Shown piece after piece: positions 5,917 to 39,925 of a stretch of DNA of 44,354 bases (within the stretch, counting starts at the first letter, position 1; the number at the start of each line of letters is the position of its first letter). The translations under genes were made by a program, and so were the position numbers. The notes beneath the pieces are model-generated. The model was given only the letters and a program-made list of their open reading frames with translations, made no database searches and was not told where the DNA came from. Source of the stretch: Vectrevirus LF31P3; sequence record OZ035776.1; one strand, written 5' to 3'.

Positions 5917-5972
5917 CACGTAACTTTTCTTAAAGGTTATCATGGTGGTAGCCTTTCAGAAAAGGAGGTTAC

Positions 5973-8280: not shown

Positions 8281-9250
8281 TAAGCAGATTAATATCTTAG
8301 TGTACACAAGGGCAGACTTATGCTAGCTCACAGCACACCTATGAGTGCCGCTCTGGAGTCTATGACTTGTTCCCTGACTATCTAGGTTTGCTCTTAGTGT
8401 ATTCCAAAGGAGGTAACATGCAAGAGGAGAATTGGGATGTGTAATGTTGGATATGGAGAAGGTTGAACCTTAGTGTTGTACAAGGATTAACCAAAGTCAA
8501 AATTTTGATATAGGCGTGTGTCAGCTCTCTCGCCCTCGCCCTCGCCGGGTTGCCCCCATATGGGGTCGGTCGGCGGTTGACCTAGGAATTGGGCTGGGCG
8601 GGTCCGTCTTCAACCTGCTGCCGCAGGAAGCTCGACGGGTGGGCGAGGGCTTGCCTTGTACTCGCTTAGTGGTACACAAGGAGAGCGCCTAGGAAGCGCT
8701 AGGGCGCGCCTTAGTATTAGACAAGGTGATTGCCTTAGTTCAACCGCTTAGGGCTTACACGGGCCGTTTTAGGGCCACTCCTGAGCGTTTGACAGGGTGT
8801 GAGGGTGTGGGCTATCTGTTTGTTTCGTCGCTGGCGCTCCTCACTTCGTTTCGCTAGCGCTCCACTCACAAGCCTGACGTGTACCTTAGTTACTACCTTA
8901 TGCTATTACTTGATGGATAGCTTAGGTTAAACTTAGTGGACTACCTTAGTTAAAGCCTTAGTGCTTATCTTAGTAATAGCTTAGTAGTGTACCTTAGTAA
9001 GTCTTAGTGTCTTCTCTTAGTGATTGCACATGCAAGCATGTAAGATGCCATTAGGTCGCGGTCGGTAGACCGCTAAAGAGAGAGAATAGTAATAAGATGC
9101 AGTAGGAGGGACACCAGAAACCTAGCCAACCTAGCCTATCCTAGCTCTGTATCTATTGCTTTTCCTTAGTCTCACATGTTAGACAACCTAGGTTTACCTT
9201 AGTAGTTGTGACATGTATCACATAAATAATCTATCTTAGTGAAACTTAGT
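8280..9250. repeat. terminal-region short-repeat arrays (CTTAGT core, about 20 copies; densest 8880..9030)
   Basis: Repeated (c)cttagt(g/a) units in an ORF-free region between the last late gene and the first early promoter; analogous to repeat arrays near T7-group genome ends. Confidence 0.6.
8526..8650. repeat. GC-rich inverted-repeat element
   Basis: cgccctcgccctcgcc (8531..8546) is mirrored by gggcgagggc (8641..8650) about 100 nt away; internal palindrome ccccatatgggg; markedly more GC-rich than surrounding sequence. Confidence 0.5.
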
Positions 9251-9501: not shown

Positions 9502-9597
9502 ATGAATTACGAAGAAATGTACGAAGTTTACTTTAACTCGACTGATGAGGGCGAAGAAGTCTTGTCTTATGCTGAGTTTGTGGAGGCTTTATCATGA
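9502..9597 (+). CDS. small acidic early ORF (31 aa)
   Basis: gagga before ATG; ATGA overlap with next ORF. Confidence 0.3.
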   Translation: MNYEEMYEVYFNSTDEGEEVLSYAEFVEALS

Positions 9598-10510: not shown

Positions 10511-10602
10511 GATAAAGCTTCTTAGTCTGGATAGGTTAAACCTAGGAGATTCTCTTGAGTCTCCTATAATGTAACCTAACTAACTAAATGAGGATTAATA
10601 AC

Positions 10603-11147: not shown

Positions 11148-11375
11148 ATGGATTTAGATAGCATCATTATGGCATTTGCTCTTATTGGCTTAAGCTGGTG
11201 CTCCTATCACCTTTACCGTGAGTTCTTATTTGATAAAGCTAAACGCAAACTAAGAAAGGAAGGCGGTAATTACCTTTGTGTAAGAGGTGGGCTTGTAGAA
11301 TACATTGCACCTAACGGCACGGAATGCGCCATTAGCAAAGATGCATTTATAGAAACGTGGCATTACATCAAGTAA
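11148..11375 (+). CDS. hypothetical small membrane protein (75 aa)
   Basis: taggag before ATG; N-terminal hydrophobic helix. Confidence 0.5.
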   Translation: MDLDSIIMAFALIGLSWCSYHLYREFLFDKAKRKLRKEGGNYLCVRGGLVEYIAPNGTECAISKDAFIETWHYIK

Positions 11376-11438
11376 CTAACCTATAGCCTACCTGAGTGGG
11401 CTATGTGATATTTACTTACACTATATAAGGTGATTACT

Positions 11439-12323
11439 ATGACTACTGAAAACACCCTCGTGTCTGTCCGTGAAGCTGCAACCGCTGAAATCAAGCAACA
11501 TTTAGACAATATCGGCACTTCTTACATCAAAGTAGGGGCTTGTCTGAATGAGTTACGCGGAGACTTTGAAGGTCAAAAAGAGTTTTTAGCCTATGTTGAA
11601 GCAGAGTTTGCCATTAAGAAGGCACAATGTTACAAGCTGATGAGTGTAGCCCGTGTCTTTGAAGGCGATGATCGCTTTAAAGGCGTGGCGATGCGTGTAA
11701 TGCTGGCGCTTGTTCCTTTCGCTGATGAAAATATAATCATGGAGAAGGCCGCAGAACTCGCCGCAAATGGCAAGCTGGACACTAATGCCGTAAACGCCCT
11801 GATTGAACCTAAGAAAGAGTCAAAGGCCGAAACGGTACAATCTAAGGCTGAGACAGTAAAACCGCAGGAGAACGCGACTGAGTCCGCAGAATTACAGGAA
11901 ATGCAAGCGACGCAGGTAGTGCCACCCGCGAGCGAGCAGGAGGCCGACGAATCAGCACCTTGGGAAGAGGAAAGCAAGCCGGAAGTGCCTAAGGCCGCGC
12001 CACTGGATAACACGGCTAACACCGAGAATGCCACTATTGCTGGTCTGCTGGCACAAATTAAAGCACTGACCGAGCAATTACAGGTAGCTAATGACCGCAT
12101 TGCCTCCTTAAGCAGCGCACGCGAAAGCAAGAAAGCAGCCGCACCTATGCTGCCGCAGTTCAAATCTTCCTGCTTCTACGCTCGCTTAGGCTTGAGCGCG
12201 GAGGAGGCAACGAAGAAAACAGCAGTTAACAAGGCACGCCGCGAACTGGTTAAGCTAGGCTACGGCGAAGGCCATGAAGCATGGCCCTTAATCTCTGAGG
12301 CAGTAGAAGAATTAACTAAGTAA
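11439..12323 (+). CDS. hypothetical early protein (two domains joined by a low-complexity acidic linker)
   Basis: About 295 aa in the position of T7 gene 0.7, but no kinase motifs recognised. Confidence 0.65.
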   Translation: MTTENTLVSVREAATAEIKQHLDNIGTSYIKVGACLNELRGDFEGQKEFLAYVEAEFAIKKAQCYKLMSVARVFEGDDRFKGVAMRVMLALVPFADENIIMEKAAELAANGKLDTNAVNALIEPKKESKAETVQSKAETVKPQENATESAELQEMQATQVVPPASEQEADESAPWEEESKPEVPKAAPLDNTANTENATIAGLLAQIKALTEQLQVANDRIASLSSARESKKAAAPMLPQFKSSCFYARLGLSAEEATKKTAVNKARRELVKLGYGEGHEAWPLISEAVEELTK

Positions 12324-12386
12324 CCTTATCGGTGGCATCTTCTTAGGTGTCACCTATTAAGGTTTCTTTCACTAGGAGTAAACAAG

Positions 12387-15014
12387 ATGCAAGACCTACA
12401 CGCTATTCAACTTCAACTTGAAGAAGAAATGTTTAACGGCGGTATCCGTCGCTTTGAAGCGGACCAACAACGCCAGATTGCATCCGGTAATGAATCAGAC
12501 ACGGCATGGAATCGCCGCTTATTGTCCGAGTTAATCGCGCCAATGGCTGAAGGTATTCAGGCATACAAGGAAGAATATGAAGGCAAGCGAGGCCGTGCAC
12601 CACGTGCATTGGCTTTCATTAACTGCGTAGAAAATGAAGTGGCAGCGTATATCACGATGAAGATCGTAATGGATATGCTTAACACTGATGTAACCTTGCA
12701 AGCTATCGCTATGAATGTAGCTGACCGCATTGAGGACCAAGTACGTTTTAGCAAGCTGGAAGGTCACGCCGCCAAATACTTTGAGAAAGTTAAGAAGTCA
12801 CTTAAGGCAAGTAAGACTAAATCATATCGCCATGCGCACAACGTAGCGGTCGTGGCTGAGAAGTCAGTAGCTGACCGTGACGCTGATTTCTCTCGCTGGG
12901 AGGCGTGGCCTAAAGATACCTTGCTACAAATTGGTATGACCTTGCTAGAAATACTGGAAAATAGTGTATTCTTCAATGGTCAGCCTGTCTTTCTTCGCAC
13001 CTTGCGCACTAATGGTGGCAAGCATGGCGTTTACTACTTACAGACTAGCGAACACGTGGGTGAATGGATAACTGCATTTAAAGAGCACGTAGCTCAGCTC
13101 AGTCCTGCCTATGCACCTTGCGTTATTCCTCCGCGTCCGTGGGTTTCTCCGTTTAATGGTGGCTTCCATACTGAGAAAGTAGCAAGCCGTATTCGTCTGG
13201 TAAAAGGCAACCGCGAGCACGTCCGTAAGCTGACCAAAAAGCAAATGCCAGCGGTTTACAAGGCTGTTAACGCCTTACAAGCTACTAAGTGGCAGGTTAA
13301 CAAGGAAGTATTGCAGGTAGTAGAAGATGTTATTCGTCTAGACCTCGGTTATGGTGTACCTTCCTTTAAGCCGCTCATTGACCGCGAGAACAAACCAGCT
13401 AACCCTGTACCTCTTGAGTTCCAACACCTGCGAGGCCGTGAACTGAAAGAGATGCTTACGCCAGAACAGTGGCAAGCCTTCATCAACTGGAAAGGTGAAT
13501 GTACCAAGCTGTATACCGCTGAAACTAAGCGCGGCAGCAAGTCGGCGGCAACCGTTCGCATGGTCGGGCAGGCCCGTAAATACAGCCAGTTTGACGCAAT
13601 ATACTTCGTGTATGCACTGGACAGCCGCTCACGCGTTTATGCGCAATCTAGCACACTCTCACCGCAATCAAATGACTTAGGCAAGGCGTTACTACGCTTT
13701 ACCGAAGGGCAGACCATAAACAGCACTGAGGCGCTTAAGTGGTTTTTGGTGAACGGGGCGAATAACTGGGGTTGGGATAAGAAAACTTTTGACGTGCGTA
13801 CCGCTAACGTGCTGGATGGCGAATTTCAAGACATGTGCCGCGACATTGCAGCCGACCCGCTGACCTTCACTCAATGGGTAAATGCCGACTCCCCTTATGG
13901 CTTCCTTGCATGGTGCTTTGAATATGCGCGTTATCTGGATGCACTGGATGAAGGCACGCAAGACCAATTCATGACGCACCTACCCGTCCATCAAGACGGC
14001 AGTTGCTCTGGTATCCAGCACTATAGCGCGATGTTACGCGATGAAGTAGGTGCGAAAGCAGTAAACCTTAAGCCTTCTGACTCCCCTCAAGATATTTATG
14101 GCGCGGTTGCGCAGGTTGTTATCCAGAAGAATTACGCCTACATGAATGCAGACGATGCAGAGACTTTCACATCTGGAAGCGTCACACTTACAGGTGCAGA
14201 ACTGCGTAGCATGGCTAGTGCGTGGGATATGATAGGAATCACTCGCGGATTGACCAAAAAGCCCGTAATGACACTACCTTATGGCAGCACACGTCTAACC
14301 TGCCGTGAATCAGTGATTGATTATATCGTTGATTTGGAAGAAAAAGAGGCCCAACGAGCTATTGCGGAAGGGCGTACCGCCAATCCTGTACATCCTTTTG
14401 ATAATGACCGTAAGGACAGCCTGACACCTAGCGCAGCTTATAACTATATGACAGCTTTAATCTGGCCTTCTATTTCGGAAGTGGTTAAAGCTCCTATAGT
14501 GGCAATGAAAATGATTCGTCAGCTTGCCCGTTTCGCAGCTAAAAGGAATGAAGGCTTAGAGTATACCTTGCCTACTGGCTTCATCTTGCAACAAAAGATA
14601 ATGGCGACAGATATGCTCCGCGTATCTACTTGCTTGATGGGAGAAATCAAGATGAGTCTACAGATTGAAACGGACGTAGTGGATGAAACGGCTATGATGG
14701 GCGCTGCTGCTCCTAACTTTGTGCATGGTCATGATGCCAGCCACCTTATCTTAACAGTCTGCGACCTTGTTGATAAAGGGATTACATCTATCGCAGTCAT
14801 TCATGATTCTTTCGGTACTCACGCAGGCCGTACAGCCGATCTACGTGATAGTCTAAGGGCAGAAATGGTGAAGATGTATCAAGGCCGTAATGCCCTGCAA
14901 AGCCTGTTAGATGAGCATGAAGAACGCTGGTTAGTAGACACCGGAATCCAAGTGCCAGAGCAAGGAGAGTTTGACCTTAACGAAATCTTAGTATCTGACT
15001 ATTGCTTCGCATAA
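12387..15014 (+). CDS. single-subunit DNA-dependent RNA polymerase (T7/SP6 type)
   Basis: 875 aa; recognisable phage RNAP motifs ([22 protein letters not shown]); N-terminus resembles SP6 RNAP as recalled. Confidence 0.95.
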
Positions 15015-15021
15015 TATTAAT

Positions 15022-15056
15022 AGGCCATTCCTTCGGGAGTGGCCTTTTCTTTTACC
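15022..15056 (+). terminator. rho-independent terminator (9-bp stem, UUCG tetraloop, U-run); early terminator
   Basis: ggccattcc-ttcg-ggagtggcc followed by ttttctttt immediately after the RNAP gene. Confidence 0.75.
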
Positions 15057-15077: not shown

Positions 15078-15093
15078 AACATAAAGTGTCTCA
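15078..15093. repeat. perfect 16-bp palindrome GTCTCACATGTGAGAC (copy 1)
   Basis: Exact palindrome immediately upstream of a phage promoter. Confidence 0.9.
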
Positions 15094-15095
15094 CA

Positions 15096-15118
15096 TGTGA
15101 GACTTATTTACCGGACAC
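15096..15118 (+). promoter_or_regulatory. phage RNAP promoter (atttaccggacactataggatag), +1 G at 15113
   Basis: CCGG variant of the promoter motif; first of two tandem promoters between RNAP and gene 1.1-like ORF. Confidence 0.7.
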
Positions 15119-15269
15119 TATAGGATAGCCGTCGGAGACGGGAAAGAAAGGGAAGATAAAGGATATAAAGGAAGTAATAGGTATTAAAGGTTATATAGGT
15201 TTACCTAGGAATACCTATTACCTTCTTCCTTCCTCTTATTTCTACTTAGAGGAAGGGCAGACCTAAGTT

Positions 15270-15285
15270 GTCTCACATGTGAGAC
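15270..15285. repeat. perfect 16-bp palindrome GTCTCACATGTGAGAC (copy 2)
   Basis: Exact palindrome immediately upstream of the second tandem promoter. Confidence 0.9.
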
Positions 15286-15290
15286 TTCGT

Positions 15291-15313
15291 ATTTACCGGA
15301 CAGTATAGATAAG
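15291..15313 (+). promoter_or_regulatory. variant phage promoter-like site (atttaccggacaGtatagataag)
   Basis: One mismatch in the conserved core (cagtatag); second tandem promoter. Confidence 0.5.
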
Positions 15314-15470: not shown

Positions 15471-17459
15471 ATGGCTATTATTCAGAATGTACCGTGTCCT
15501 GCCTGTCAAAAGAATGGACATGATATTACTGGTAACCATCTTATGATATTTGAGGATGGCGCTGGTTACTGTAACCGTGGTCACTTCCATGATAACGGTA
15601 AACCTTATTACCACAAGCCGGAAGGTGGCATCGAGATAACCGAGTTACCTATTACTGGCAATATCAAATATACACCTTCTCAATTCAAAGAAATGGAGAA
15701 GGAAGGGAAGATAAGTGACCCTAAGCTACGCGCCATCGCACTTGGTGGTATGCGTATGAAAGACCGTTGGGAGGTTATGAATGAGCAAGAAAGGGCAGAC
15801 CAAGAAGCAGAGTGGAAACTTGATGTTGAATGGTTCCTCACGCTTAAGCGTAAGAACCTTGTATCCCGTCACATTCGAGGTGACATCGCAGCAATGTACG
15901 ATGTGCGCGTTGGACACGATGAAGAGGGAAGAGTCAACCGTCACTATTATCCACGATATGAAAAGGGTGTGCTTGTTGGAGCAAAATGCCGGACGTTGCC
16001 GAAGGATTTTAAGTTCGGACACCTAGGTAAACTCTTTGGTATGCAAGATCTTTTCGGTATGAACACTTTGTCTCACGTGTTAGACAAGGGGAGACGAAAG
16101 GATTGCTTGCTTATTGTAGGCGGTGAACTTGATGCACTAGCAGCGCAGCAGATGCTCCTTGATTCTGCCAAAGGTACTAAGTGGGAGGGTCAGCCATACC
16201 ATGTATGGTCTGTCAACAAAGGCGAGTCTTGCCTTGAAGAGATAGTGCAGAACCGTGAGCATATCGCCCAATTCAAGAAGATTATTTGGGGCTTCGATGG
16301 GGATGAGGTAGGGCAGAAGCAGAACCAGCAAGCGGCTCGCCTGTTTCCTGGCAAATCCTATATCCTTGAGTACCCTTCTGGTTGCAAAGATGCCAACAAG
16401 GCATTGATGGCTGGCAAGGCTAAAGAGTTTGTTGATGCATGGTTTAATGCCAAGTCATCTGATGAAGTCTTTGGTAGCCAGATTAAATCTATCGCATCTC
16501 AAAGGGATAAGCTCAAGGCTGCACGTCCAGAGCAAGGACTATCATGGCCTTGGCCTAAGCTGAACAAGGTAACGCTAGGTATTCGTAAGAACCAACTTAT
16601 CATTGTAGGTGCAGGATCTGGTGTAGGTAAGACTGAGTTCCTTCGTGAAGTAGTTAAGCACCTCATTGAAGAACACGGTGAATCTGTAGGCATCATTTCT
16701 ACAGAAGACCCGATGGTCAAGGTTTCCCGTGCTTTTATCGGCAAGTGGATTGATAAGCGTATTGAGTTACCGCCAACCAACGACCCGAAAGAAGATGGAT
16801 ACCGTGAGGTGTTCGACTACACCGAGGAAGAAGCTAACGCCGCCATTGATTATGTAGCTGATACAGGTAAGCTGTTTGTAGCTGACCTAGAGGGTGACTA
16901 TTCGATGGAAAAGGTAGAGCAAACTTGCCTAGAGTTTGAGGCTATGGGCATTTCTAATATCATCATTGATAACTTAACGGGGATTAAATTAGATGAGCGT
17001 GCTTTTGGTGGGAAGGTTGGTGCACTTGATGAATGCGTCAAGCGGATTGGTACTATCAAAGACCGACACCCGGTTACTATATTCCTTGTATCACACCTTA
17101 CACGTCCTCCGGCAAACCGTACCCAACACGAAGAAGGTGGCGAGGTTATCCTTTCTGACTTCCGAGGCTCAGGCGCTATCGGATTCTGGGCATCTTACGC
17201 CTTGGGGATTGAGCGTAATACAAGAGCTGAAACGCTTGACGAAAGGACTACCACGTACATCTCATGTGTCAAAGACCGCGACCAAGGTATCTACACTGGA
17301 ACCAAGGTCATGCTTAAGGGTGACATTCAAACCGGACGTTTAATGGAACCACAAGCCCGTACTAAGTCATTTGATACAGGTGAAGCAAGGCAACAAGAAG
17401 TACCAGATTTACCGGACACTATAGAAGAGACTAACTTCGATGAAGAAAGTGAGTTCTGA
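15471..17459 (+). CDS. DNA primase/helicase (T7 gp4-like)
   Basis: N-terminal zinc ribbon CPACQ...CNRGH; Walker A GAGSGVGKT; 662 aa. Confidence 0.95.
   Translation: MAIIQNVPCPACQKNGHDITGNHLMIFEDGAGYCNRGHFHDNGKPYYHKPEGGIEITELPITGNIKYTPSQFKEMEKEGKISDPKLRAIALGGMRMKDRWEVMNEQERADQEAEWKLDVEWFLTLKRKNLVSRHIRGDIAAMYDVRVGHDEEGRVNRHYYPRYEKGVLVGAKCRTLPKDFKFGHLGKLFGMQDLFGMNTLSHVLDKGRRKDCLLIVGGELDALAAQQMLLDSAKGTKWEGQPYHVWSVNKGESCLEEIVQNREHIAQFKKIIWGFDGDEVGQKQNQQAARLFPGKSYILEYPSGCKDANKALMAGKAKEFVDAWFNAKSSDEVFGSQIKSIASQRDKLKAARPEQGLSWPWPKLNKVTLGIRKNQLIIVGAGSGVGKTEFLREVVKHLIEEHGESVGIISTEDPMVKVSRAFIGKWIDKRIELPPTNDPKEDGYREVFDYTEEEANAAIDYVADTGKLFVADLEGDYSMEKVEQTCLEFEAMGISNIIIDNLTGIKLDERAFGGKVGALDECVKRIGTIKDRHPVTIFLVSHLTRPPANRTQHEEGGEVILSDFRGSGAIGFWASYALGIERNTRAETLDERTTTYISCVKDRDQGIYTGTKVMLKGDIQTGRLMEPQARTKSFDTGEARQQEVPDLPDTIEETNFDEESEF
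17407..17429 (+). promoter_or_regulatory. phage RNAP promoter (atttaccggacactatagaagag), +1 G at 17424
   Basis: Lies inside the 3' end of the primase/helicase gene. Confidence 0.7.
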
Positions 17460-17480
17460 TTAGTGTATTTATCAGGGCTT

Positions 17481-17496
17481 GTCTCACATGTGAGAC
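17481..17496. repeat. perfect 16-bp palindrome GTCTCACATGTGAGAC (copy 3)
   Basis: Flanking bases extend the stem (gctt...aggc); followed by tctt. Confidence 0.9.
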
Positions 17497-17535
17497 AGGC
17501 TCTTATTAAGTACATTAAATAACTGGAGATTAACT

Positions 17536-18448: not shown

Positions 18449-18614
18449 ACATAGTCTTAAAATGTTCGATGGTCATGAAGACCTGCAAGCCAAGATTACT
18501 AACCAAGCCTTCCTGTTCGCACAGTTAACTATGGCTGAGGCCAAGAAGAATAGCCTGACGCGTGAACAGGTTATCAAGGAAAGTGAAGTGAACCGTAAGA
18601 TTCGCAGTCGATAA
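18438..18614 (+). CDS. hypothetical small protein (58 aa)
   Basis: ATG overlapping upstream stop; weak. Confidence 0.3.
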   Translation: MQNKHSLKMFDGHEDLQAKITNQAFLFAQLTMAEAKKNSLTREQVIKESEVNRKIRSR

Positions 18615-18671
18615 GTCAAGGGTTGTCTCACACGTGAGACAGCCTTTCATCATATTGATTGGAGGTGCACT

Positions 18672-21312: not shown

Positions 21313-21428
21313 TGAATAGGCTTGACATTGTTTACCTATTCTTCACTTTCTTTCTTGTATTTCTTATGATTGCTTGTTACGGAAGTGTGCAGGTAAATAT
21401 ACCTGATGAAGAGGAAGGATACGACTGA
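21312..21428 (+). CDS. small hydrophobic ORF (38 aa)
   Basis: ATGA overlap with DNAP stop; one predicted helix; weak. Confidence 0.3.
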   Translation: MNRLDIVYLFFTFFLVFLMIACYGSVQVNIPDEEEGYD

Positions 21429-21486
21429 GTTATACTCAAGGTCACTTACGAGTGGCCTTTATGGATAACTTAACTAAGGAAATATT

Positions 21487-22287: not shown

Positions 22288-23094
22288 ATGGCACGTGGTG
22301 ATTTTGATTTTGGTGCTCAGGTTACTAAAGCTGAAGGTAAGGTTTTTAAGAACCCTGAAGTTGGTGATCATGAAGCAGTAATCTCTGGCATCATTCATGT
22401 GGGTTCCTTCCAAGATATCTTTAAGAAAGGTAATACCACTGAAGTTAAGAAGCCAGCAAACTTTGTTCTTGTTAAGATTGTACTGATGGGTGACGATGAC
22501 AAGAACGAAGATGATTCTCGCATGGAACAGTGGATGGCTGTGCCTCTGAAGTCTGGTGACAAGGCAATCTTGACTAAGTTCCTGAATGCAGTTGACCCTA
22601 AAGAGCTGCTTGGTGGTTTCGATGACTTCATTGGTGAATGCCTGACTGCAACTATGGTTGGCTCTGGCGACAAGAATGATGATGGTACTTTCAAGTATGT
22701 TAACTGGAAAGGCTTTGGCGGTATGCCTGATAAGTTGAAGAAGCTTGTACTGGCTCAGGTAGAAGAGGAAGGTCTGTCTATGACAGGTCATATCACCTTC
22801 GACAAGCTGACCAAAGAAATCCTTGATGACATCCCAGCTAACTTGGTGCGTCAATACTTTCTTAATGAAACACCTCGTGGTAAGAACCTGTCTGTTGCTG
22901 GTTCTCACGTAGAAGCAATCATTAAAGCTGCTCGTGAAGAAGACCCAGAGTGGAAGAAAGCCAAGAAGAAAGATGACGAGGATGCTACTCCAGCTAATCG
23001 TAAATCTCTGGATACTGGTGAGTCTGTTCCACAGGAAGTACCTGAAGCAGAAGATACACCTGCACCGGAGATGGATGAGGACGCAGAATATTAA
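22288..23094 (+). CDS. hypothetical protein with acidic C-terminal tail ending in Tyr; candidate ssDNA-binding protein (T7 gp2.5-like role)
   Basis: 268 aa; taggagac before ATG; C-terminus EMDEDAEY resembles the acidic tail with terminal aromatic of phage SSBs. Functional call is inference. Confidence 0.45.
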   Translation: MARGDFDFGAQVTKAEGKVFKNPEVGDHEAVISGIIHVGSFQDIFKKGNTTEVKKPANFVLVKIVLMGDDDKNEDDSRMEQWMAVPLKSGDKAILTKFLNAVDPKELLGGFDDFIGECLTATMVGSGDKNDDGTFKYVNWKGFGGMPDKLKKLVLAQVEEEGLSMTGHITFDKLTKEILDDIPANLVRQYFLNETPRGKNLSVAGSHVEAIIKAAREEDPEWKKAKKKDDEDATPANRKSLDTGESVPQEVPEAEDTPAPEMDEDAEY

Positions 23095-23323: not shown

Positions 23324-23339
23324 GTCTCACATGTGAGAC
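23324..23339. repeat. perfect 16-bp palindrome GTCTCACATGTGAGAC (copy 4)
   Basis: Between gene stop and next promoter. Confidence 0.9.
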
Positions 23340-23354
23340 AAATCGGTGTCCGGT

Positions 23355-23377
23355 ATTTACTGGACACTATAGAAGAG
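23355..23377 (+). promoter_or_regulatory. phage RNAP promoter (atttactggacactatagaagag), +1 G at 23372
   Basis: Full motif match. Confidence 0.8.
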
Positions 23378-23426: not shown

Positions 23427-23798
23427 ATGTTCAAGATTGAAACTATCGTAAACCGTGTTGTTAAAGGTGCTGCTCTGGTATCCGTTGAGTCTTTCATTAT
23501 CGTCGATGAAGCTGATCAACTGGTAGCTGGTACTAAGGCTTACGATACCCGTGAAGAAGCTCAGGCTAAGATTGACAGCATGGGTAACTTCGCTGCTGGT
23601 CTGGAGTTCGCTCGTGCTTGCTTCCCTGAGCAGGCTGACAAAGCTCAGATCGGTAAGGCTAACATCGTAGCTGAATATCTGGATTGGGTTGCTGCTGGTA
23701 AGCCAGTGAAAGAAGTTAAATCTACTGAAGAAGCTGAAGCAGTAGAAGACCTAGCTGCACCGGTAGATGTTCCGGTAAGCGAAGAAGAAGAGTTTTAA
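23427..23798 (+). CDS. hypothetical acidic protein (123 aa) ending EEEEF; likely highly expressed
   Basis: aaaggaga before ATG, own promoter and downstream hairpin; codons look like the highly expressed late genes. Confidence 0.65.
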   Translation: MFKIETIVNRVVKGAALVSVESFIIVDEADQLVAGTKAYDTREEAQAKIDSMGNFAAGLEFARACFPEQADKAQIGKANIVAEYLDWVAAGKPVKEVKSTEEAEAVEDLAAPVDVPVSEEEEF

Positions 23799-36912: not shown

Positions 36913-39860
36913 TGGCAATTGAGCGACAAGCAGTACAAGGTCTGCCACAAGTGCAGGCCACTTCTCCTAATGTCATGACCTTTGCACCTCAGCGAGTTGG
37001 AGGTGTGGAGGCTGGCGTAGCTTCTACCTCCGGTAGTCGATTTATCGAAGACCTTATTCGAGCAGCCAGTAGTGTAGCTGATGTAACCACTGGTATCCTT
37101 AATCAAAAGATTGAGGAAGATAAGGTTGTTCAAATGGAACGGGCATATAACGGATTAATGCCTTCTGAGGATGCAACTCGTGGTGGCGCTCGTGCTAACA
37201 TGCTTGTCAAAGCTCAACTGCTAGCTAATGATGAAGCAGCACGAATGAAAGACATGGCTACTCGTTTCCAAGGAACGGATGACGAGTGGACACAACTTAT
37301 GGTTGACTCTCGTAATGAGATGCAGAATAAGCTGTTCCAGCAATACCCTGAGTTGCAAGGTGACAAAGATACTATGCGTATGGTCACTAATGTCTTCCAA
37401 GAACAGCAGCCTCAGATTTGGGCTACACGAACCCAGCATAAACTTGACCGTGAACAAGCAGACCGTGAGGATACCTTTGACGGGCGAGTGGCTTCTACTT
37501 GGGATTCTAATATTGACCCTGAAGCCTCTGGCTATGCTTTACAGGAACGAATCCGCGAAGGTCTTACTCAAGGATTACTACCTGAACAGATGCACAAGAA
37601 GTTAGTCCAGCGAGCAATTTCACTTGCACAAGGCGGTGATGTTAGCATGGCTGAAGCCCTGAAGTATGTGAAGGACGATAAGGGTGTTTCTGTTTATGCT
37701 AAGAATCCACAGCTTATCACAGCCATCACTAGTGGTAATGCAGTTTGGGCTAGGAATAATGTAGCTGATGTAACTCGTATGTCTTTCGAAGTTAAAGAAT
37801 CCTACCTTGCAGGTGATTTAACTGATGAAGAATTGTTGGAACGAGCACAGCACATTAATAATCTGACAGGTAACTCTGTCTTCTCTAATCCAGAGCTAGA
37901 GGCACTGATGCGCCAACGGGCTAAGCAGAATGCAGAGCTAGGTGCAATGCAGGATATGCGACGTGAGCTTTACTCCGACCGCCTGACTGGCTTCCAAGGT
38001 AAGACTGATAAAGAGAAGAAGGCTTACATTGATGTTATCAAACAGGATAGCCAACTTTATGCAGACCAGCAAATCAAACAACGTGGCTTGGACCCTTACA
38101 GTCAAGAGGCTGAAGCTATTCGTGGTGCAGTGGAAGTGCAGCGCCTGCAATTCATGAACTCCAAAGGCTTAGTGGATGATACCTTTGAGTCTCGTATCAA
38201 AGCCATGGAATCTATGCTATCGCCTGAGCACTTTGCCAAGGGCGAACCACAGGAGTTGATGACTATTCGCCAGTTGTGGGAACAGTTGCCAGAAGAGAGC
38301 CGAGGTGTCTTTGGTGACACGGTGAATGGCTACATGGATAACTACAACACTGCACTACAAATGGGAGAGACACCTTTGCAGGCTGCAAGGTTTGCGCGTG
38401 AAGCACAGCAGAAATTCTCTCGTACTGAGAAGGAAACCAAGAAGTTCAACTCAGCTATTGGAGATGCACTGGATGAGGTATCTGGTGCTGGCTGGTTTGA
38501 TGGTAAAACCGAAGTGTCAGACTTAGGTAAAGCTATTGCGGAAGAAGAGTTACGAGCTAAGGCCAATATGTTGTGGTCTAGTGGTATGCGTAACATGGAT
38601 TCTATCAAGAAGGCTTTAATTACTTGGGGCAATAAACGCTACACTCAATCAGAGGATGCAAAGACTTCCGGTGGCTATTTCATTAAAGGTGATTACACTT
38701 CTGCATCTGATATGCTTATGTCAGTTGGGAAAGGCGTAAACCCTACCGATGTACCTCTGGCGCTTGGTAGGTATGTAGAAACACAGATGCCAGAATTGAA
38801 GAAGGAGCTTCAAGAGTGGGAAACTAAAGATGATATATACATTGATTACAATGAACAGAAAGGTACTTTCGTGATTCGTGCTGGTGCAGCAGGTCGCCCT
38901 CTTTCTGGAGTAATCCCTGTAACCTCTTTAGATACCACTTCACTACTAGATTCTGCCTATCAGAAGAAAGTAGAGGAACGAGATAAAGGCGAGTATGTTC
39001 ACCCGTATCGTACAGATATTGGTGCACAAGAGCCTATGCCAGCTAAACCAACTGCCAAAGATATTGGTAAATTTGGACTAGCTAACTTCCTCATGTCTTC
39101 TGCTTTTGCTTCTGGCGAGAATCTGCCTTCTAACTTCGAGATTAACTACCGAGGTAATATGCAACAATTCTATGACAAGCTAGCTATGGATGAGAATAAA
39201 GATAAAGTTGGCTTTAATAAGGCAACTGGAACCTTTACTCCATATAAAGACGCTCACGGTGAGTCTATCGGTTACGGTCATTTCTTAACGGAAGAAGAGA
39301 AGCGAAACGGGTATATTAAGATTGGCGATGAACTAGTTCCCTATCGAGGGTCTATGTCTCAGCTTACAGAGAGCAAGGCTCGCGCTCTTATGGAGCAAGA
39401 TGCTAAGAAGCATGTGCCTCCTACTCGTGACTGGAAGATTCCGTTTGACCAGATGCACCCTGCACAGCAACGTGGCTTGATGGATTTAAGCTACAATTTA
39501 GGTAAAGGTGGAATCCAGAACTCACCGCGTGCTCTTGCTGCATTCAAAGCTGGTAAGCTTACGGAAGGCTTTATCGAAATGCTGGGCACTGCATCAAGTG
39601 AAGGTAAGCGTATTCCTGGTCTACTGAAGCGACGTGCTGAGGCATACAATATGGCATCTGCTGGTGGTGTGCCTAAGATTACCGAAGTGGAGACTCGTGA
39701 AGATGGCTCCATGTGGGTTAGGTTTGGTGGACCTATGCCAGCAGGTTCTGTCTCGGCCTGGACTCATAAACGTATTGGCGCGGATGGTTGGTATCAGGTT
39801 TATGAGTCTGCACCTACCAAGTTAGCTAAAGGTTCTAAGGTAGGTAAAGTTAAGTTGTAG
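36912..39860 (+). CDS. internal virion (ejection) protein with T4-lysozyme-like (GH24) domain
   Basis: C-terminal segment YKDAHGESIGYGHFLT ... GLLKRRAEAYNMA parallels the T4 lysozyme active-site region YKDTEGYYTIGIGHLLT. Confidence 0.75.
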   Translation: MAIERQAVQGLPQVQATSPNVMTFAPQRVGGVEAGVASTSGSRFIEDLIRAASSVADVTTGILNQKIEEDKVVQMERAYNGLMPSEDATRGGARANMLVKAQLLANDEAARMKDMATRFQGTDDEWTQLMVDSRNEMQNKLFQQYPELQGDKDTMRMVTNVFQEQQPQIWATRTQHKLDREQADREDTFDGRVASTWDSNIDPEASGYALQERIREGLTQGLLPEQMHKKLVQRAISLAQGGDVSMAEALKYVKDDKGVSVYAKNPQLITAITSGNAVWARNNVADVTRMSFEVKESYLAGDLTDEELLERAQHINNLTGNSVFSNPELEALMRQRAKQNAELGAMQDMRRELYSDRLTGFQGKTDKEKKAYIDVIKQDSQLYADQQIKQRGLDPYSQEAEAIRGAVEVQRLQFMNSKGLVDDTFESRIKAMESMLSPEHFAKGEPQELMTIRQLWEQLPEESRGVFGDTVNGYMDNYNTALQMGETPLQAARFAREAQQKFSRTEKETKKFNSAIGDALDEVSGAGWFDGKTEVSDLGKAIAEEELRAKANMLWSSGMRNMDSIKKALITWGNKRYTQSEDAKTSGGYFIKGDYTSASDMLMSVGKGVNPTDVPLALGRYVETQMPELKKELQEWETKDDIYIDYNEQKGTFVIRAGAAGRPLSGVIPVTSLDTTSLLDSAYQKKVEERDKGEYVHPYRTDIGAQEPMPAKPTAKDIGKFGLANFLMSSAFASGENLPSNFEINYRGNMQQFYDKLAMDENKDKVGFNKATGTFTPYKDAHGESIGYGHFLTEEEKRNGYIKIGDELVPYRGSMSQLTESKARALMEQDAKKHVPPTRDWKIPFDQMHPAQQRGLMDLSYNLGKGGIQNSPRALAAFKAGKLTEGFIEMLGTASSEGKRIPGLLKRRAEAYNMASAGGVPKITEVETREDGSMWVRFGGPMPAGSVSAWTHKRIGADGWYQVYESAPTKLAKGSKVGKVKL

Positions 39861-39877
39861 TACCTAACTCAAGGCTT

Positions 39878-39893
39878 GTCTCACATGTGAGAC
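39878..39893. repeat. perfect 16-bp palindrome GTCTCACATGTGAGAC (copy 5)
   Basis: Between the two large internal virion protein genes; flanks extend the stem. Confidence 0.9.
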
Positions 39894-39925
39894 AGGTCTT
39901 TATGATAGGCACTATGGAGGGAATT

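Follow-up and report, generated by a model that had tools for sequence, protein, structure and literature searches.

What reads the perfect 16-bp palindrome GTCTCACATGTGAGAC, which recurs across the genome of Vectrevirus LF31P3 (sequence record OZ035776.1), and what does it do there? The window, meaning the whole 44,354-bp stretch analyzed here, is a complete, circularly permuted Vectrevirus genome (K1-5/K1E-like, SP6 branch of the T7 supergroup) whose best GenBank matches were about 96% identical. Comparison with related phages indicated that the palindrome is probably a dispersed, operator-like recognition site of the phage early protein gp6 (K1-5 numbering; SP6 gp7), a 294-amino-acid protein encoded on the + strand at 11439 to 12323, with binding predicted from covariation and fold. 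Three copies additionally form the tips of hairpins of the RNase III-processing type. All genes of the window lie on the + strand, 13 phage promoters of the type ATTTAC(C/T)GGACACTATAG were mapped in it, and one copy of the terminal repeat, ending near 8813, places the genetic left end at ~8.6 to 8.8 kb.

The exact 16-mer was found five times in the window and not once in 100 dinucleotide-preserving shuffles; with up to three mismatches allowed, there were 8 matches against 0.18 expected. An earlier note on this DNA had counted five exact copies and judged their recurrence far beyond chance, and both statements held. Its coordinates for four of the copies (15270, 17481, 23324, and 39878) were correct, and its headline position (15078 to 15093) was 10 nt off, the exact search giving 15088 to 15103. 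Three further copies had been described as one-mismatch variants, which is so at 9169 and 18625 and not at 16070, where there are two mismatches, as the capitals used in that note themselves indicate. The left third of the genome contained seven of the eight copies (binomial P = 0.0026), and seven were intergenic, as had been said of most of them. No repeated palindrome with more than two copies was found in the T7 genome, which served as a control.

The leftmost copy, GTCTCACATGTTAGAC (9169 to 9184; 1 mismatch; half-sites GTCTCAC and GTCTAAC), was ~350 bp beyond the terminal repeat, with the first sigma70-like −35 hexamer (9208) following 24 nt downstream. Exact copies at 15088 to 15103 and 15270 to 15285 ended 2 and 5 nt upstream of the phage promoters at 15106 to 15123 and 15291 to 15308, respectively, the former being 73 nt past the RNA polymerase (RNAP) gene and beyond the early terminator (15022 to 15045). 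The in-gene copy, GTCTCACGTGTTAGAC (16070 to 16085; peptide S-H-V-L-D), was confirmed to be within the primase/helicase gene (15471 to 17459). An exact copy at 17481 to 17496, starting 21 nt after the stop codon of that gene, and a one-mismatch copy with a central CACG at 18625 to 18640, starting 10 nt after a stop codon, with gene 12 and the DNA polymerase gene downstream, were both at hairpin apices. The exact copy at 23324 to 23339 started 1 nt past the gp17 stop codon and ended 15 nt upstream of the phage promoter at 23355 to 23372, and the sole late-region copy (39878 to 39893, exact) was at a hairpin apex between gp35 and gp36, 17 nt after a stop codon. The reported proximity to promoters and gene ends was thus borne out, with three copies 2 to 15 nt upstream of phage promoters and four 1 to 21 nt after stop codons. 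That the flanks often extend the stem was true of 17481, 18625, and 39878 and untrue of the other five.

Conservation was examined in 28 IMG/VR loci retrieved via the primase/helicase gene and in further loci retrieved via gp6. Each of the SP6-like genomes examined contained 5 to 11 copies at orthologous positions, conservation and placement in related phages being a check that the earlier note had proposed. K1-5 and K1E had identical copies in identical places, and SP6 had GTCTAACATGTTGGAC or GTCCAAC variants at orthologous places. The shared positions were upstream of the first host-type promoter at the left end, within the RNAP and primase genes, beside phage promoters downstream of the RNAP gene (1 to 3 copies), downstream of the primase/helicase gene, upstream of the DNA polymerase gene and of gene 18, and in the gp35/gp36 gap. 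The ortholog of the left-end copy was present, with CCTT(A) just before it, in all lineages examined. Comparison of 189 distinct copies showed conservation of the half-sites and of the outer GTC/GAC, and the conserved block stopped sharply at 16 to 17 nt, the motif being 16 or 17 nt long depending on the lineage. The center was restricted to R-Y (AT, GT, AC, or GC) in most lineages, was NN in the L030 group, and was 3 nt long in Proteus-type (L020) and Vibrio phages. The K1-5 group, two metagenomic clades, and the Erwinia and Vibrio phages had GTCTCAC half-sites, and most other lineages had GTCCAAC; the remaining types were GTCTAAC (SP6 and L195), GTCTACA (the L030 group), GTCTACC (L197), and GTCTAGT (the PP99 group). 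A scan of IMG/VR beyond SP6-like genomes yielded no multicopy contigs, with single, chance-like matches only, and public annotations of the relatives contained no feature at the palindrome sites. A literature search found no mention of the exact 16-mer or of six variant 16-mers, the genome papers Scholl 2004 and Dobbins 2004, which may mention the palindrome, lying outside that search; nothing pertinent was found on SP6-like phages in connection with RNase III, transcriptomes, or ParB-like/DUF3102 proteins.

The core of the motif was conserved beyond what RNA pairing accounts for, including in the five copies without an extended hairpin, which agrees with the earlier preference for sequence-specific recognition over structure. 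These five have a 6-bp stem only, short of the approximately two helical turns needed for RNase III, and their flanks paired at chance level (51 to 61 G·U versus 42 C·A). Among non-hairpin copies across the relatives, pair 4-13 was G·U in 19 and C·A in 13, and pair 5-12 was a C·U-type (pyrimidine-pyrimidine) mismatch in 27. With conserved half-sites, a free center, and sharp edges, the 16-mer core behaves, in sequence comparisons, as a two-fold symmetric double-stranded DNA site.

Copies within genes were informative as to the level at which the site is maintained. In the primase copy, third-codon positions were invariant at 4 of 6 positions within the motif versus 0 of 31 in the flanks (25 distinct sequences), and the codons switched with motif type between TCC-AAC-GTG-TTG and TCT-CAC-GTG-TTA, including an Asn-to-His replacement. 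A perfect K1-5-type palindrome is avoided at 16070 because an in-frame TGA would arise. At the RNAP-gene site of relatives, the encoded peptide was SNVLD, SHVLD, or SRCET according to motif type, and it drifted (TANVLD, SNAMA, NNVLQ, and ALVSE) wherever the palindrome was lost. By these codon comparisons, selection acts on the nucleotides of the in-gene copies, overriding codon and even amino acid choice. In the RNAP gene of the window itself (13800 to 13817), the palindrome has decayed to accGCTAACGTGCTGGAT (peptide TANVLD), as it has in L192; this site is therefore dispensable in the K1-5 group.

The type of half-site varied together with a single residue of gp6. The N-terminal region of the protein contains the stretch FLAYVEAEFAIKKAQCY-K-LMSVARVF, in which the hyphenated position is residue 66 (codon 11634 to 11636); in an alignment of 62 gp6 sequences, this position was K, N, or R only, plus H in SP6. 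Genomes with K had 242 GTCTCAC, 47 GTCTAAC, and 10 GTCCAAC half-sites; those with N had 275 GTCCAAC, 67 GTCTAAC, and 0 GTCTCAC; and those with R had 62 GTCTACA, 8 GTCTAGT, and 4 GTCTACC (some of the loci counted overlap on the same contig). The coupling found by covariation was thus K with GTCTCAC, N or H with GTC(C/T)AAC, and R with GTCTAC or GTCTAG. The K/N/R rule was set on the first loci and then scored on seven contigs fetched afterward, six of which fit: N with GTCCAAC in L192 and L196 and with GTCTAAC in L195, K with GTCTCAC-type sites in L194 and L198, and R with GTCTACC in L197. Two Vibrio phages with K had GTCTCAC 17-mers. The sole discordance was the seventh contig, from Salmonella phage vB_SalP_SE29 (L193, PP526725; 1096 to 11318), a mosaic with K66 that had GTCTCAC near the RNAP and primase genes and GTCCAAC at three RNase III-hairpin positions, which suggests a recombinant replication module with noncognate sites tolerated at hairpin positions. 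In the gp6 tree, the residue changed seven times and the half-site type seven times, and K with GTCTCAC occurred in at least 4 separate clades.

The closest natural comparison was between the window and L192, which were 98% identical in RNAP, 96% in primase, and 98% in DNA polymerase and shared K1-5-type promoters. K66N was the only type-specific change in the helix-turn-helix (HTH) region of L192 gp6, and all six orthologous palindromes of L192, including the in-gene primase copy, were of the GTCCAAC type, within 60-nt flanks that were 64 to 97% identical to those of the window (most of them 83 to 97%). Each genome has one motif type, the six copies switched together, and 16-bp gene conversion tracts with no homology on either side are implausible, so the site must be read by a trans-acting factor of evolving specificity. 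From the usual preferences of these side chains, we infer a recognition chemistry in which Lys goes with C:G at half-site position 5 and Asn or His goes with A:T.

The gp6 gene is part of the early operon, directly upstream of the RNAP gene. The protein was present in every motif-bearing lineage (35 to 97% identity) and had homologues in 213 GenBank phage records of ~43 to 47 kb; in T7, neither gp6 nor a repeated palindrome was found. A structure model of the full-length protein had a confident region at residues 10 to 122, a disordered acidic linker (125 to 190), a long helix (192 to 233), and a small C-terminal helical domain. Modeling of residues 1 to 126 alone (predicted local distance difference test [pLDDT] score, 90.3; predicted template modeling [pTM] score, 0.77) gave helices at 10 to 40, 46 to 57, 61 to 74 (containing K66), 85 to 94, 98 to 109, and 115 to 122, and by predicted structure this domain is a ParB/KorB-like HTH domain with the DNA-binding fold of the ParB family. 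Foldseek comparison of the N-terminal domain with viral models matched DUF3102 proteins (probability, 1.0; TMq, 0.6 to 0.76), for which the domain-only model was needed, the full-length model giving weak matches only. Matches of gp6 to Pfam DUF3102 (PF11300) were weak, a profile search against PDB sequences returned nothing, and no ParB/Srx-type N-terminal (CTP-binding) domain was found by Pfam, the HTH domain starting at residue 10. On the predicted structure, gp6 is not a member of the ParB/KorB family; it shares the DNA-binding fold and the site logic. The conserved C-terminal domain (residues 234 to 294, 12138 to 12320; APMLPQFKSSCFYARLGLSAEEA..VNKARRELVKLGYGEGHEAW) resembled J-domain helices without the HPD motif, had a weak Foldseek match to the xRbj J-domain (probability, 0.75), and, as modeled, may be a protein-interaction module.

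Other candidate binders (gp10, gp16, gp17, gp18, gp19, and small ORFs) had no DNA-binding domain by Pfam, PHROGs, or PDB sequence search. The products of gp16 (22288 to 23094) and gp18 (23427 to 23798) ended in acidic stretches whose last residue is aromatic (..PEMDEDAEY and ..VSEEEEF, respectively), similar to the DNA polymerase-binding tails of T7 gp2.5 and gp4. By this resemblance, gp16 is probably the single-strand DNA-binding protein, and gp18 is a possible further partner of the replisome.

The copies at 17481, 18625, and 39878 capped hairpins of ~57 nt, each composed of a lower stem, a 2-by-3-nt internal loop, and a 13-bp upper stem. Predicted minimum free energies on the + and − strands were −31.5 and −17.2 kcal/mol for the hairpin at 17461 to 17517 (+), −29.0 and −14.5 kcal/mol for that at 18605 to 18661 (+), and −26.3 and −22.2 kcal/mol for that at 39858 to 39914 (+); the structured class as a whole averaged −25.9 on the + strand versus −18.1 on the − strand. 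The 7-bp flanks of 54 distinct hairpin-type copies contained 265 Watson-Crick pairs, 102 G·U pairs, and 1 C·A pair, and this excess of G·U over C·A indicates selection on the sense-strand RNA. A covariance model was built from six T7 RNase III sites alone, the coordinates of which we take to be those of Dunn and Studier (1983) and which were checked by folding, and it was run unfiltered over the whole window. The folded T7 sites had a matching architecture and the flank consensus ACUCAAGG...CCUUUAU^GAU. All three palindrome hairpins were among the six best + strand matches, all of them intergenic, with scores of 17.7 bits (E, 0.1; marginal) at 17461, 22 bits (E, 0.009) at 18605, and 33.3 bits (E, 1.5e-5) at 39858, and in each of the three hairpins the 16-mer appeared as a 10-nt apical insertion relative to the model. 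The hairpin at 39858 to 39914 had flanks ACUCAAGG...CUUUAUGAU, as in T7 R-sites. Alignment to T7 CCUUUAU^GAU predicted a cut after 17506 in the first hairpin, and the predicted cuts in the other two were after 18650 and 39903. An internal loop of this kind limits RNase III to one cut, leaving a protective 3′ hairpin (PMC1540722). By homology, the three hairpins are RNase III-type processing signals, with cleavage predicted; the suggestion that the palindromes are RNase III sites therefore stands for these three copies and fails for the five without an extended helix. A scan of the whole window against Rfam 15, with E values of up to 10, found no family at or near any copy.

The top match of the T7-derived model was a canonical T7-like RNase III hairpin that lacks the palindrome (CUGAGUUAUACUCAAGGUCACUUACGAGUGGCCUUUAUGGAUAACUUAA; 21425 to 21473, +; 51.7 bits; E, 4.7e-10), located downstream of the DNA polymerase gene and ahead of the following ORF. 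Weaker intergenic + strand matches at 5924 to 5965 (19.6 bits), 12318 to 12368 (18.9 bits), 11370 to 11417 (15.5 bits), and 10532 to 10578 (15.5 bits) are possible further processing sites by their sequence, that at 12318 being between the gp6 and RNAP genes, where T7 has R1.

Several observations favor a reading in which all copies act as RNA, as + strand hairpins for RNase III, pausing, termination, stabilization, or an RNA-binding protein, with a sequence identity that would reflect such a factor: every gene lies on the + strand, transcribed DNA contains seven of the eight copies, three cap hairpins recognized by the T7 site model, and the hairpin flanks have the G·U bias and + strand stability described above. 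Pairs 4/13 and 5/12 also change complementarily between lineages, the SP6 U4·G13 pair has the same orientation in six copies, several copies in relatives abut Shine-Dalgarno sequences, and a permissive scan flagged 15088 and 15270 as a hairpin with a T-rich tail. The 6-bp stem of the five other copies, however, is not long enough for RNase III, and there is no conserved U-tract; C·A and C·U mismatches equal G·U in frequency among the non-hairpin copies; and the left-end copy precedes the first promoter. A conserved stem sequence with a free loop is the reverse of most RNA-protein hairpin recognition, and the covarying protein has a predicted fold of the kind that binds double-stranded DNA in ParB and KorB. 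We consider it unlikely that RNA accounts for the whole family. The idea of pause or termination hairpins, also raised by the earlier note, finds little to favor it, most copies having no U-tract after them.

The site could also be read as DNA by a different phage or host protein, with the gp6 residue tracking the motif through ancestry or linkage. Binding by gp6 is a prediction, gp6 is within 3 to 12 kb of most sites, and there are further conserved proteins of unknown function (gp10, gp11, and gp18). However, some of the lineages with the motif lacked gp10 and gp11, gp18 is an acidic protein whose tail is of the polymerase-binding type, and the identities of gp18 and gp11 did not follow motif type (the window's gp18 was 94% identical to that of SP6, and its gp11 was 90% identical to that of L016). 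The host factors of these enterobacteria hardly differ, yet phages of a single host genus have different motifs (L192 versus the window, both Vectrevirus), and the pairing of K with GTCTCAC recurs across the gp6 tree, as noted above. A reader other than gp6 is thus rather improbable. Very improbable indeed is that no trans factor is involved and that the copies are a selfish or mobile palindromic repeat, or recombination linkers, homogenized by gene conversion. Copies do sit at gene boundaries in a mosaic phage group, and foreign-type copies were present in some genomes (K1-5 at 9570, L010 at 3222, and SE29), but the positions are orthologous and unvarying from Escherichia coli to Vibrio phages, the copies persist in essential genes under synonymous-site selection, conversion tracts would need to be ≤16 bp without flanking homology, and the six L192 sites switched type within flanks that were mostly 83 to 97% identical (range, 64 to 97%). 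A site for a dimeric protein, the remaining proposal of the earlier note, best explains the family as a whole, with gp6 the candidate by covariation and fold.

Several known classes of element were also compared with the palindrome and rejected. An intrinsic terminator was rejected for most copies, there being no U-run; the two copies that passed the permissive scan (15088 and 15270) have the 6-bp stem, and their T-rich tail is the AT-rich edge of the adjacent promoter. The true early terminator is at 15022 to 15045, and the annotated terminators of the relative MK373773 do not coincide with palindromes. A link to genome termini or packaging was dismissed: the T7 left end, TCTCACAGTGTAC, resembles the motif, but the termini of K1-5, SP6, and K1E do not. 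T7 primase reads 5′-GTC, which is the invariant motif edge; a primase recognition site was set aside, as SP6 primase presumably reads 5′-GCA and the motif flanks are not conserved. None of the known host regulator sites compared (CRP, Fis, matS, SlmA SBS, and parS) fit. Nor did the family resemble a mobile palindromic repeat of the REP/MITE kind, given its orthologous positions from E. coli to Vibrio phages and its copies in the RNAP and primase genes.

Under the proposed explanation, gp6 would be made early by host RNA polymerase, from the RNAP's own operon, and, probably as a dimer, would read each 7- to 8-bp half-site (GTC-Y-M-A-C-R) on double-stranded DNA; the long helix and the two-fold symmetry of the site both suggest a dimer. 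Lys66, in the putative recognition helix, would go with GTCTCAC, Asn or His with GTC(C/T)AAC, and Arg with GTCTAC(A/C) or GTCTAGT, and a K66N exchange would shift the preference of gp6 from GTCTCACATGTGAGAC toward the GTCCAAC type (GTCCAACATGTTGGAC). Where the DNA site falls in a short transcribed spacer that holds an RNase III hairpin, it would be placed at the hairpin tip, since a palindromic insertion keeps the RNA fold only there; this would explain the three composite elements. The copies at 17481, 18625, and 39878 are then DNA sites and apices of RNase III signals at once, with both binding and cleavage predicted.

The consequence of such binding can be proposed with less confidence. The sites on which gp6 would load are concentrated in the early-to-middle third of the genome, and among them are copies directly upstream of three phage promoters and of the first host-type one; in relatives, palindromes are also inside the RNAP gene and just before it. 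The variable spacing between site and promoter argues against a fixed activating contact and would be compatible with a roadblock, an insulator, or KorB-like repression from upstream, including feedback on RNAP synthesis. KorB-like global control, damping or insulating early and middle transcription as infection proceeds, is a plausible outcome that we rate at somewhat below an even chance. By analogy, gp6 might alternatively organize replication or bridge DNA; the densest palindrome cluster flanks what we take to be the position of the T7-type primary origin. More doubtful is the full proposal that gp6 and the palindromes form an unrecognized KorB-type network across SP6-like phages (Molineuxvirinae and Vibrio, Pseudomonas, and Aeromonas relatives), in which gp6 on approximately ten sites would act as a roadblock or insulator that shuts off or partitions early and middle transcription, RNAP synthesis included, with specificity set by a one-residue code.

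Further features were observed around individual copies. Eight CTTAGT repeats formed an array (8885 to 9016) between the terminal repeat and the left-end palindrome, and a ninth (9165) overlapped the start of that palindrome (ccTTAGTCTCAC). ATCTGTT, the sequence of the class II pause/termination signal at the T7 concatemer junction, occurred once in the window, at 8814 to 8820, precisely where the terminal repeat ends (GGGCTA|TCTGTTTG). The ~165-nt unit between the two post-RNAP palindromes had no ORF and was at the position of the T7 primary origin. The transcript from promoter 15106 starts with a conserved small hairpin (GATAGCCGTCGGAGACGG; 15124 to 15141), which SP6 and other relatives likewise had downstream of the corresponding promoter. 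The promoter of gene 18 was within a hairpin (23345 to 23367, +; GGTGTCCGG-TATTTA-CTGGACAC), its core pairing with an upstream inverted copy, and this inverted copy covaried with promoter specificity (tgtgtctc..ggggacac in SP6, gaccgccc..gggcggac in L021, and ggtgcagcac..gtgttgcac in L027).

SP6-like phages are the source of a standard laboratory RNA polymerase and are used for K1/K5 capsule targeting and phage therapy, and their temporal control is still poorly understood. To our knowledge, they lack the T7 regulators gp0.7, gp2, and lysozyme, the job of which would be done by the gp6 network if the full proposal were true; its recognition code (Lys with C:G, Asn/His with A:T, and Arg with a shifted TAC/TAG half-site) would then be open to reengineering. 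If gp6 binds the sites, a universally conserved “hypothetical” early protein would gain a function, the widespread domain DUF3102 would gain its first, and there would be a phage-wide operator network constraining even the amino acid sequences of RNAP and primase, as well as a natural series of specificity switches, including a nearly isogenic K66N pair, for the study and engineering of recognition. The mapping of four or more likely RNase III sites should aid transcriptome interpretation and genome engineering of these phages.

Among known systems, the T7 sites R0.3, R0.5, R1, R1.1, R4.7, and R18.5 resemble the three hairpin copies in their lower stem, internal loop, and upper stem, in the flank consensus (A)CUCAAGG...CCUUUAU^GAU, and in their sense-strand intergenic position. 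The apex of the window hairpins, however, is an invariant 16-mer that forms a 10-nt extension, whereas T7 apices vary by site, and five of the eight window copies are without an RNase III scaffold. ParB-parS, Noc-NBS (16-bp chromosomal palindromes), and the SopB sites of the phage-plasmid N15 are comparable as DNA sites, but a partition function is not expected in a lytic podophage, gp6 has no CTPase or spreading domain, and GTCTCACATGTGAGAC is unrelated in sequence to TGTTNCACGTGAAACA of the ParB-parS/Noc-NBS comparison. As with ParB/KorB-like sites, which are palindromes of 13 to 16 bp in several dispersed copies on a replicon, the window contains 8 copies, and the genomes of relatives contain 6 to 10 each. 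Compared with KorB and its OB operators on IncP (RK2) plasmids, gp6 differs in that no ParB/Srx-type N-terminal domain was found, a ParA/KorA partner not having been searched for, and in its acidic linker, long helix, and small J-domain-like C terminus; the replicon is a strictly lytic phage of the T7 supergroup, and several of the sites are in genes or on RNase III hairpins. The DUF3102 (PF11300) proteins of phages and bacteria, for which a literature search found no described function, share the fold of the gp6 N-terminal domain; unlike those proteins so far, gp6 has a proposed DNA target and a candidate specificity residue.

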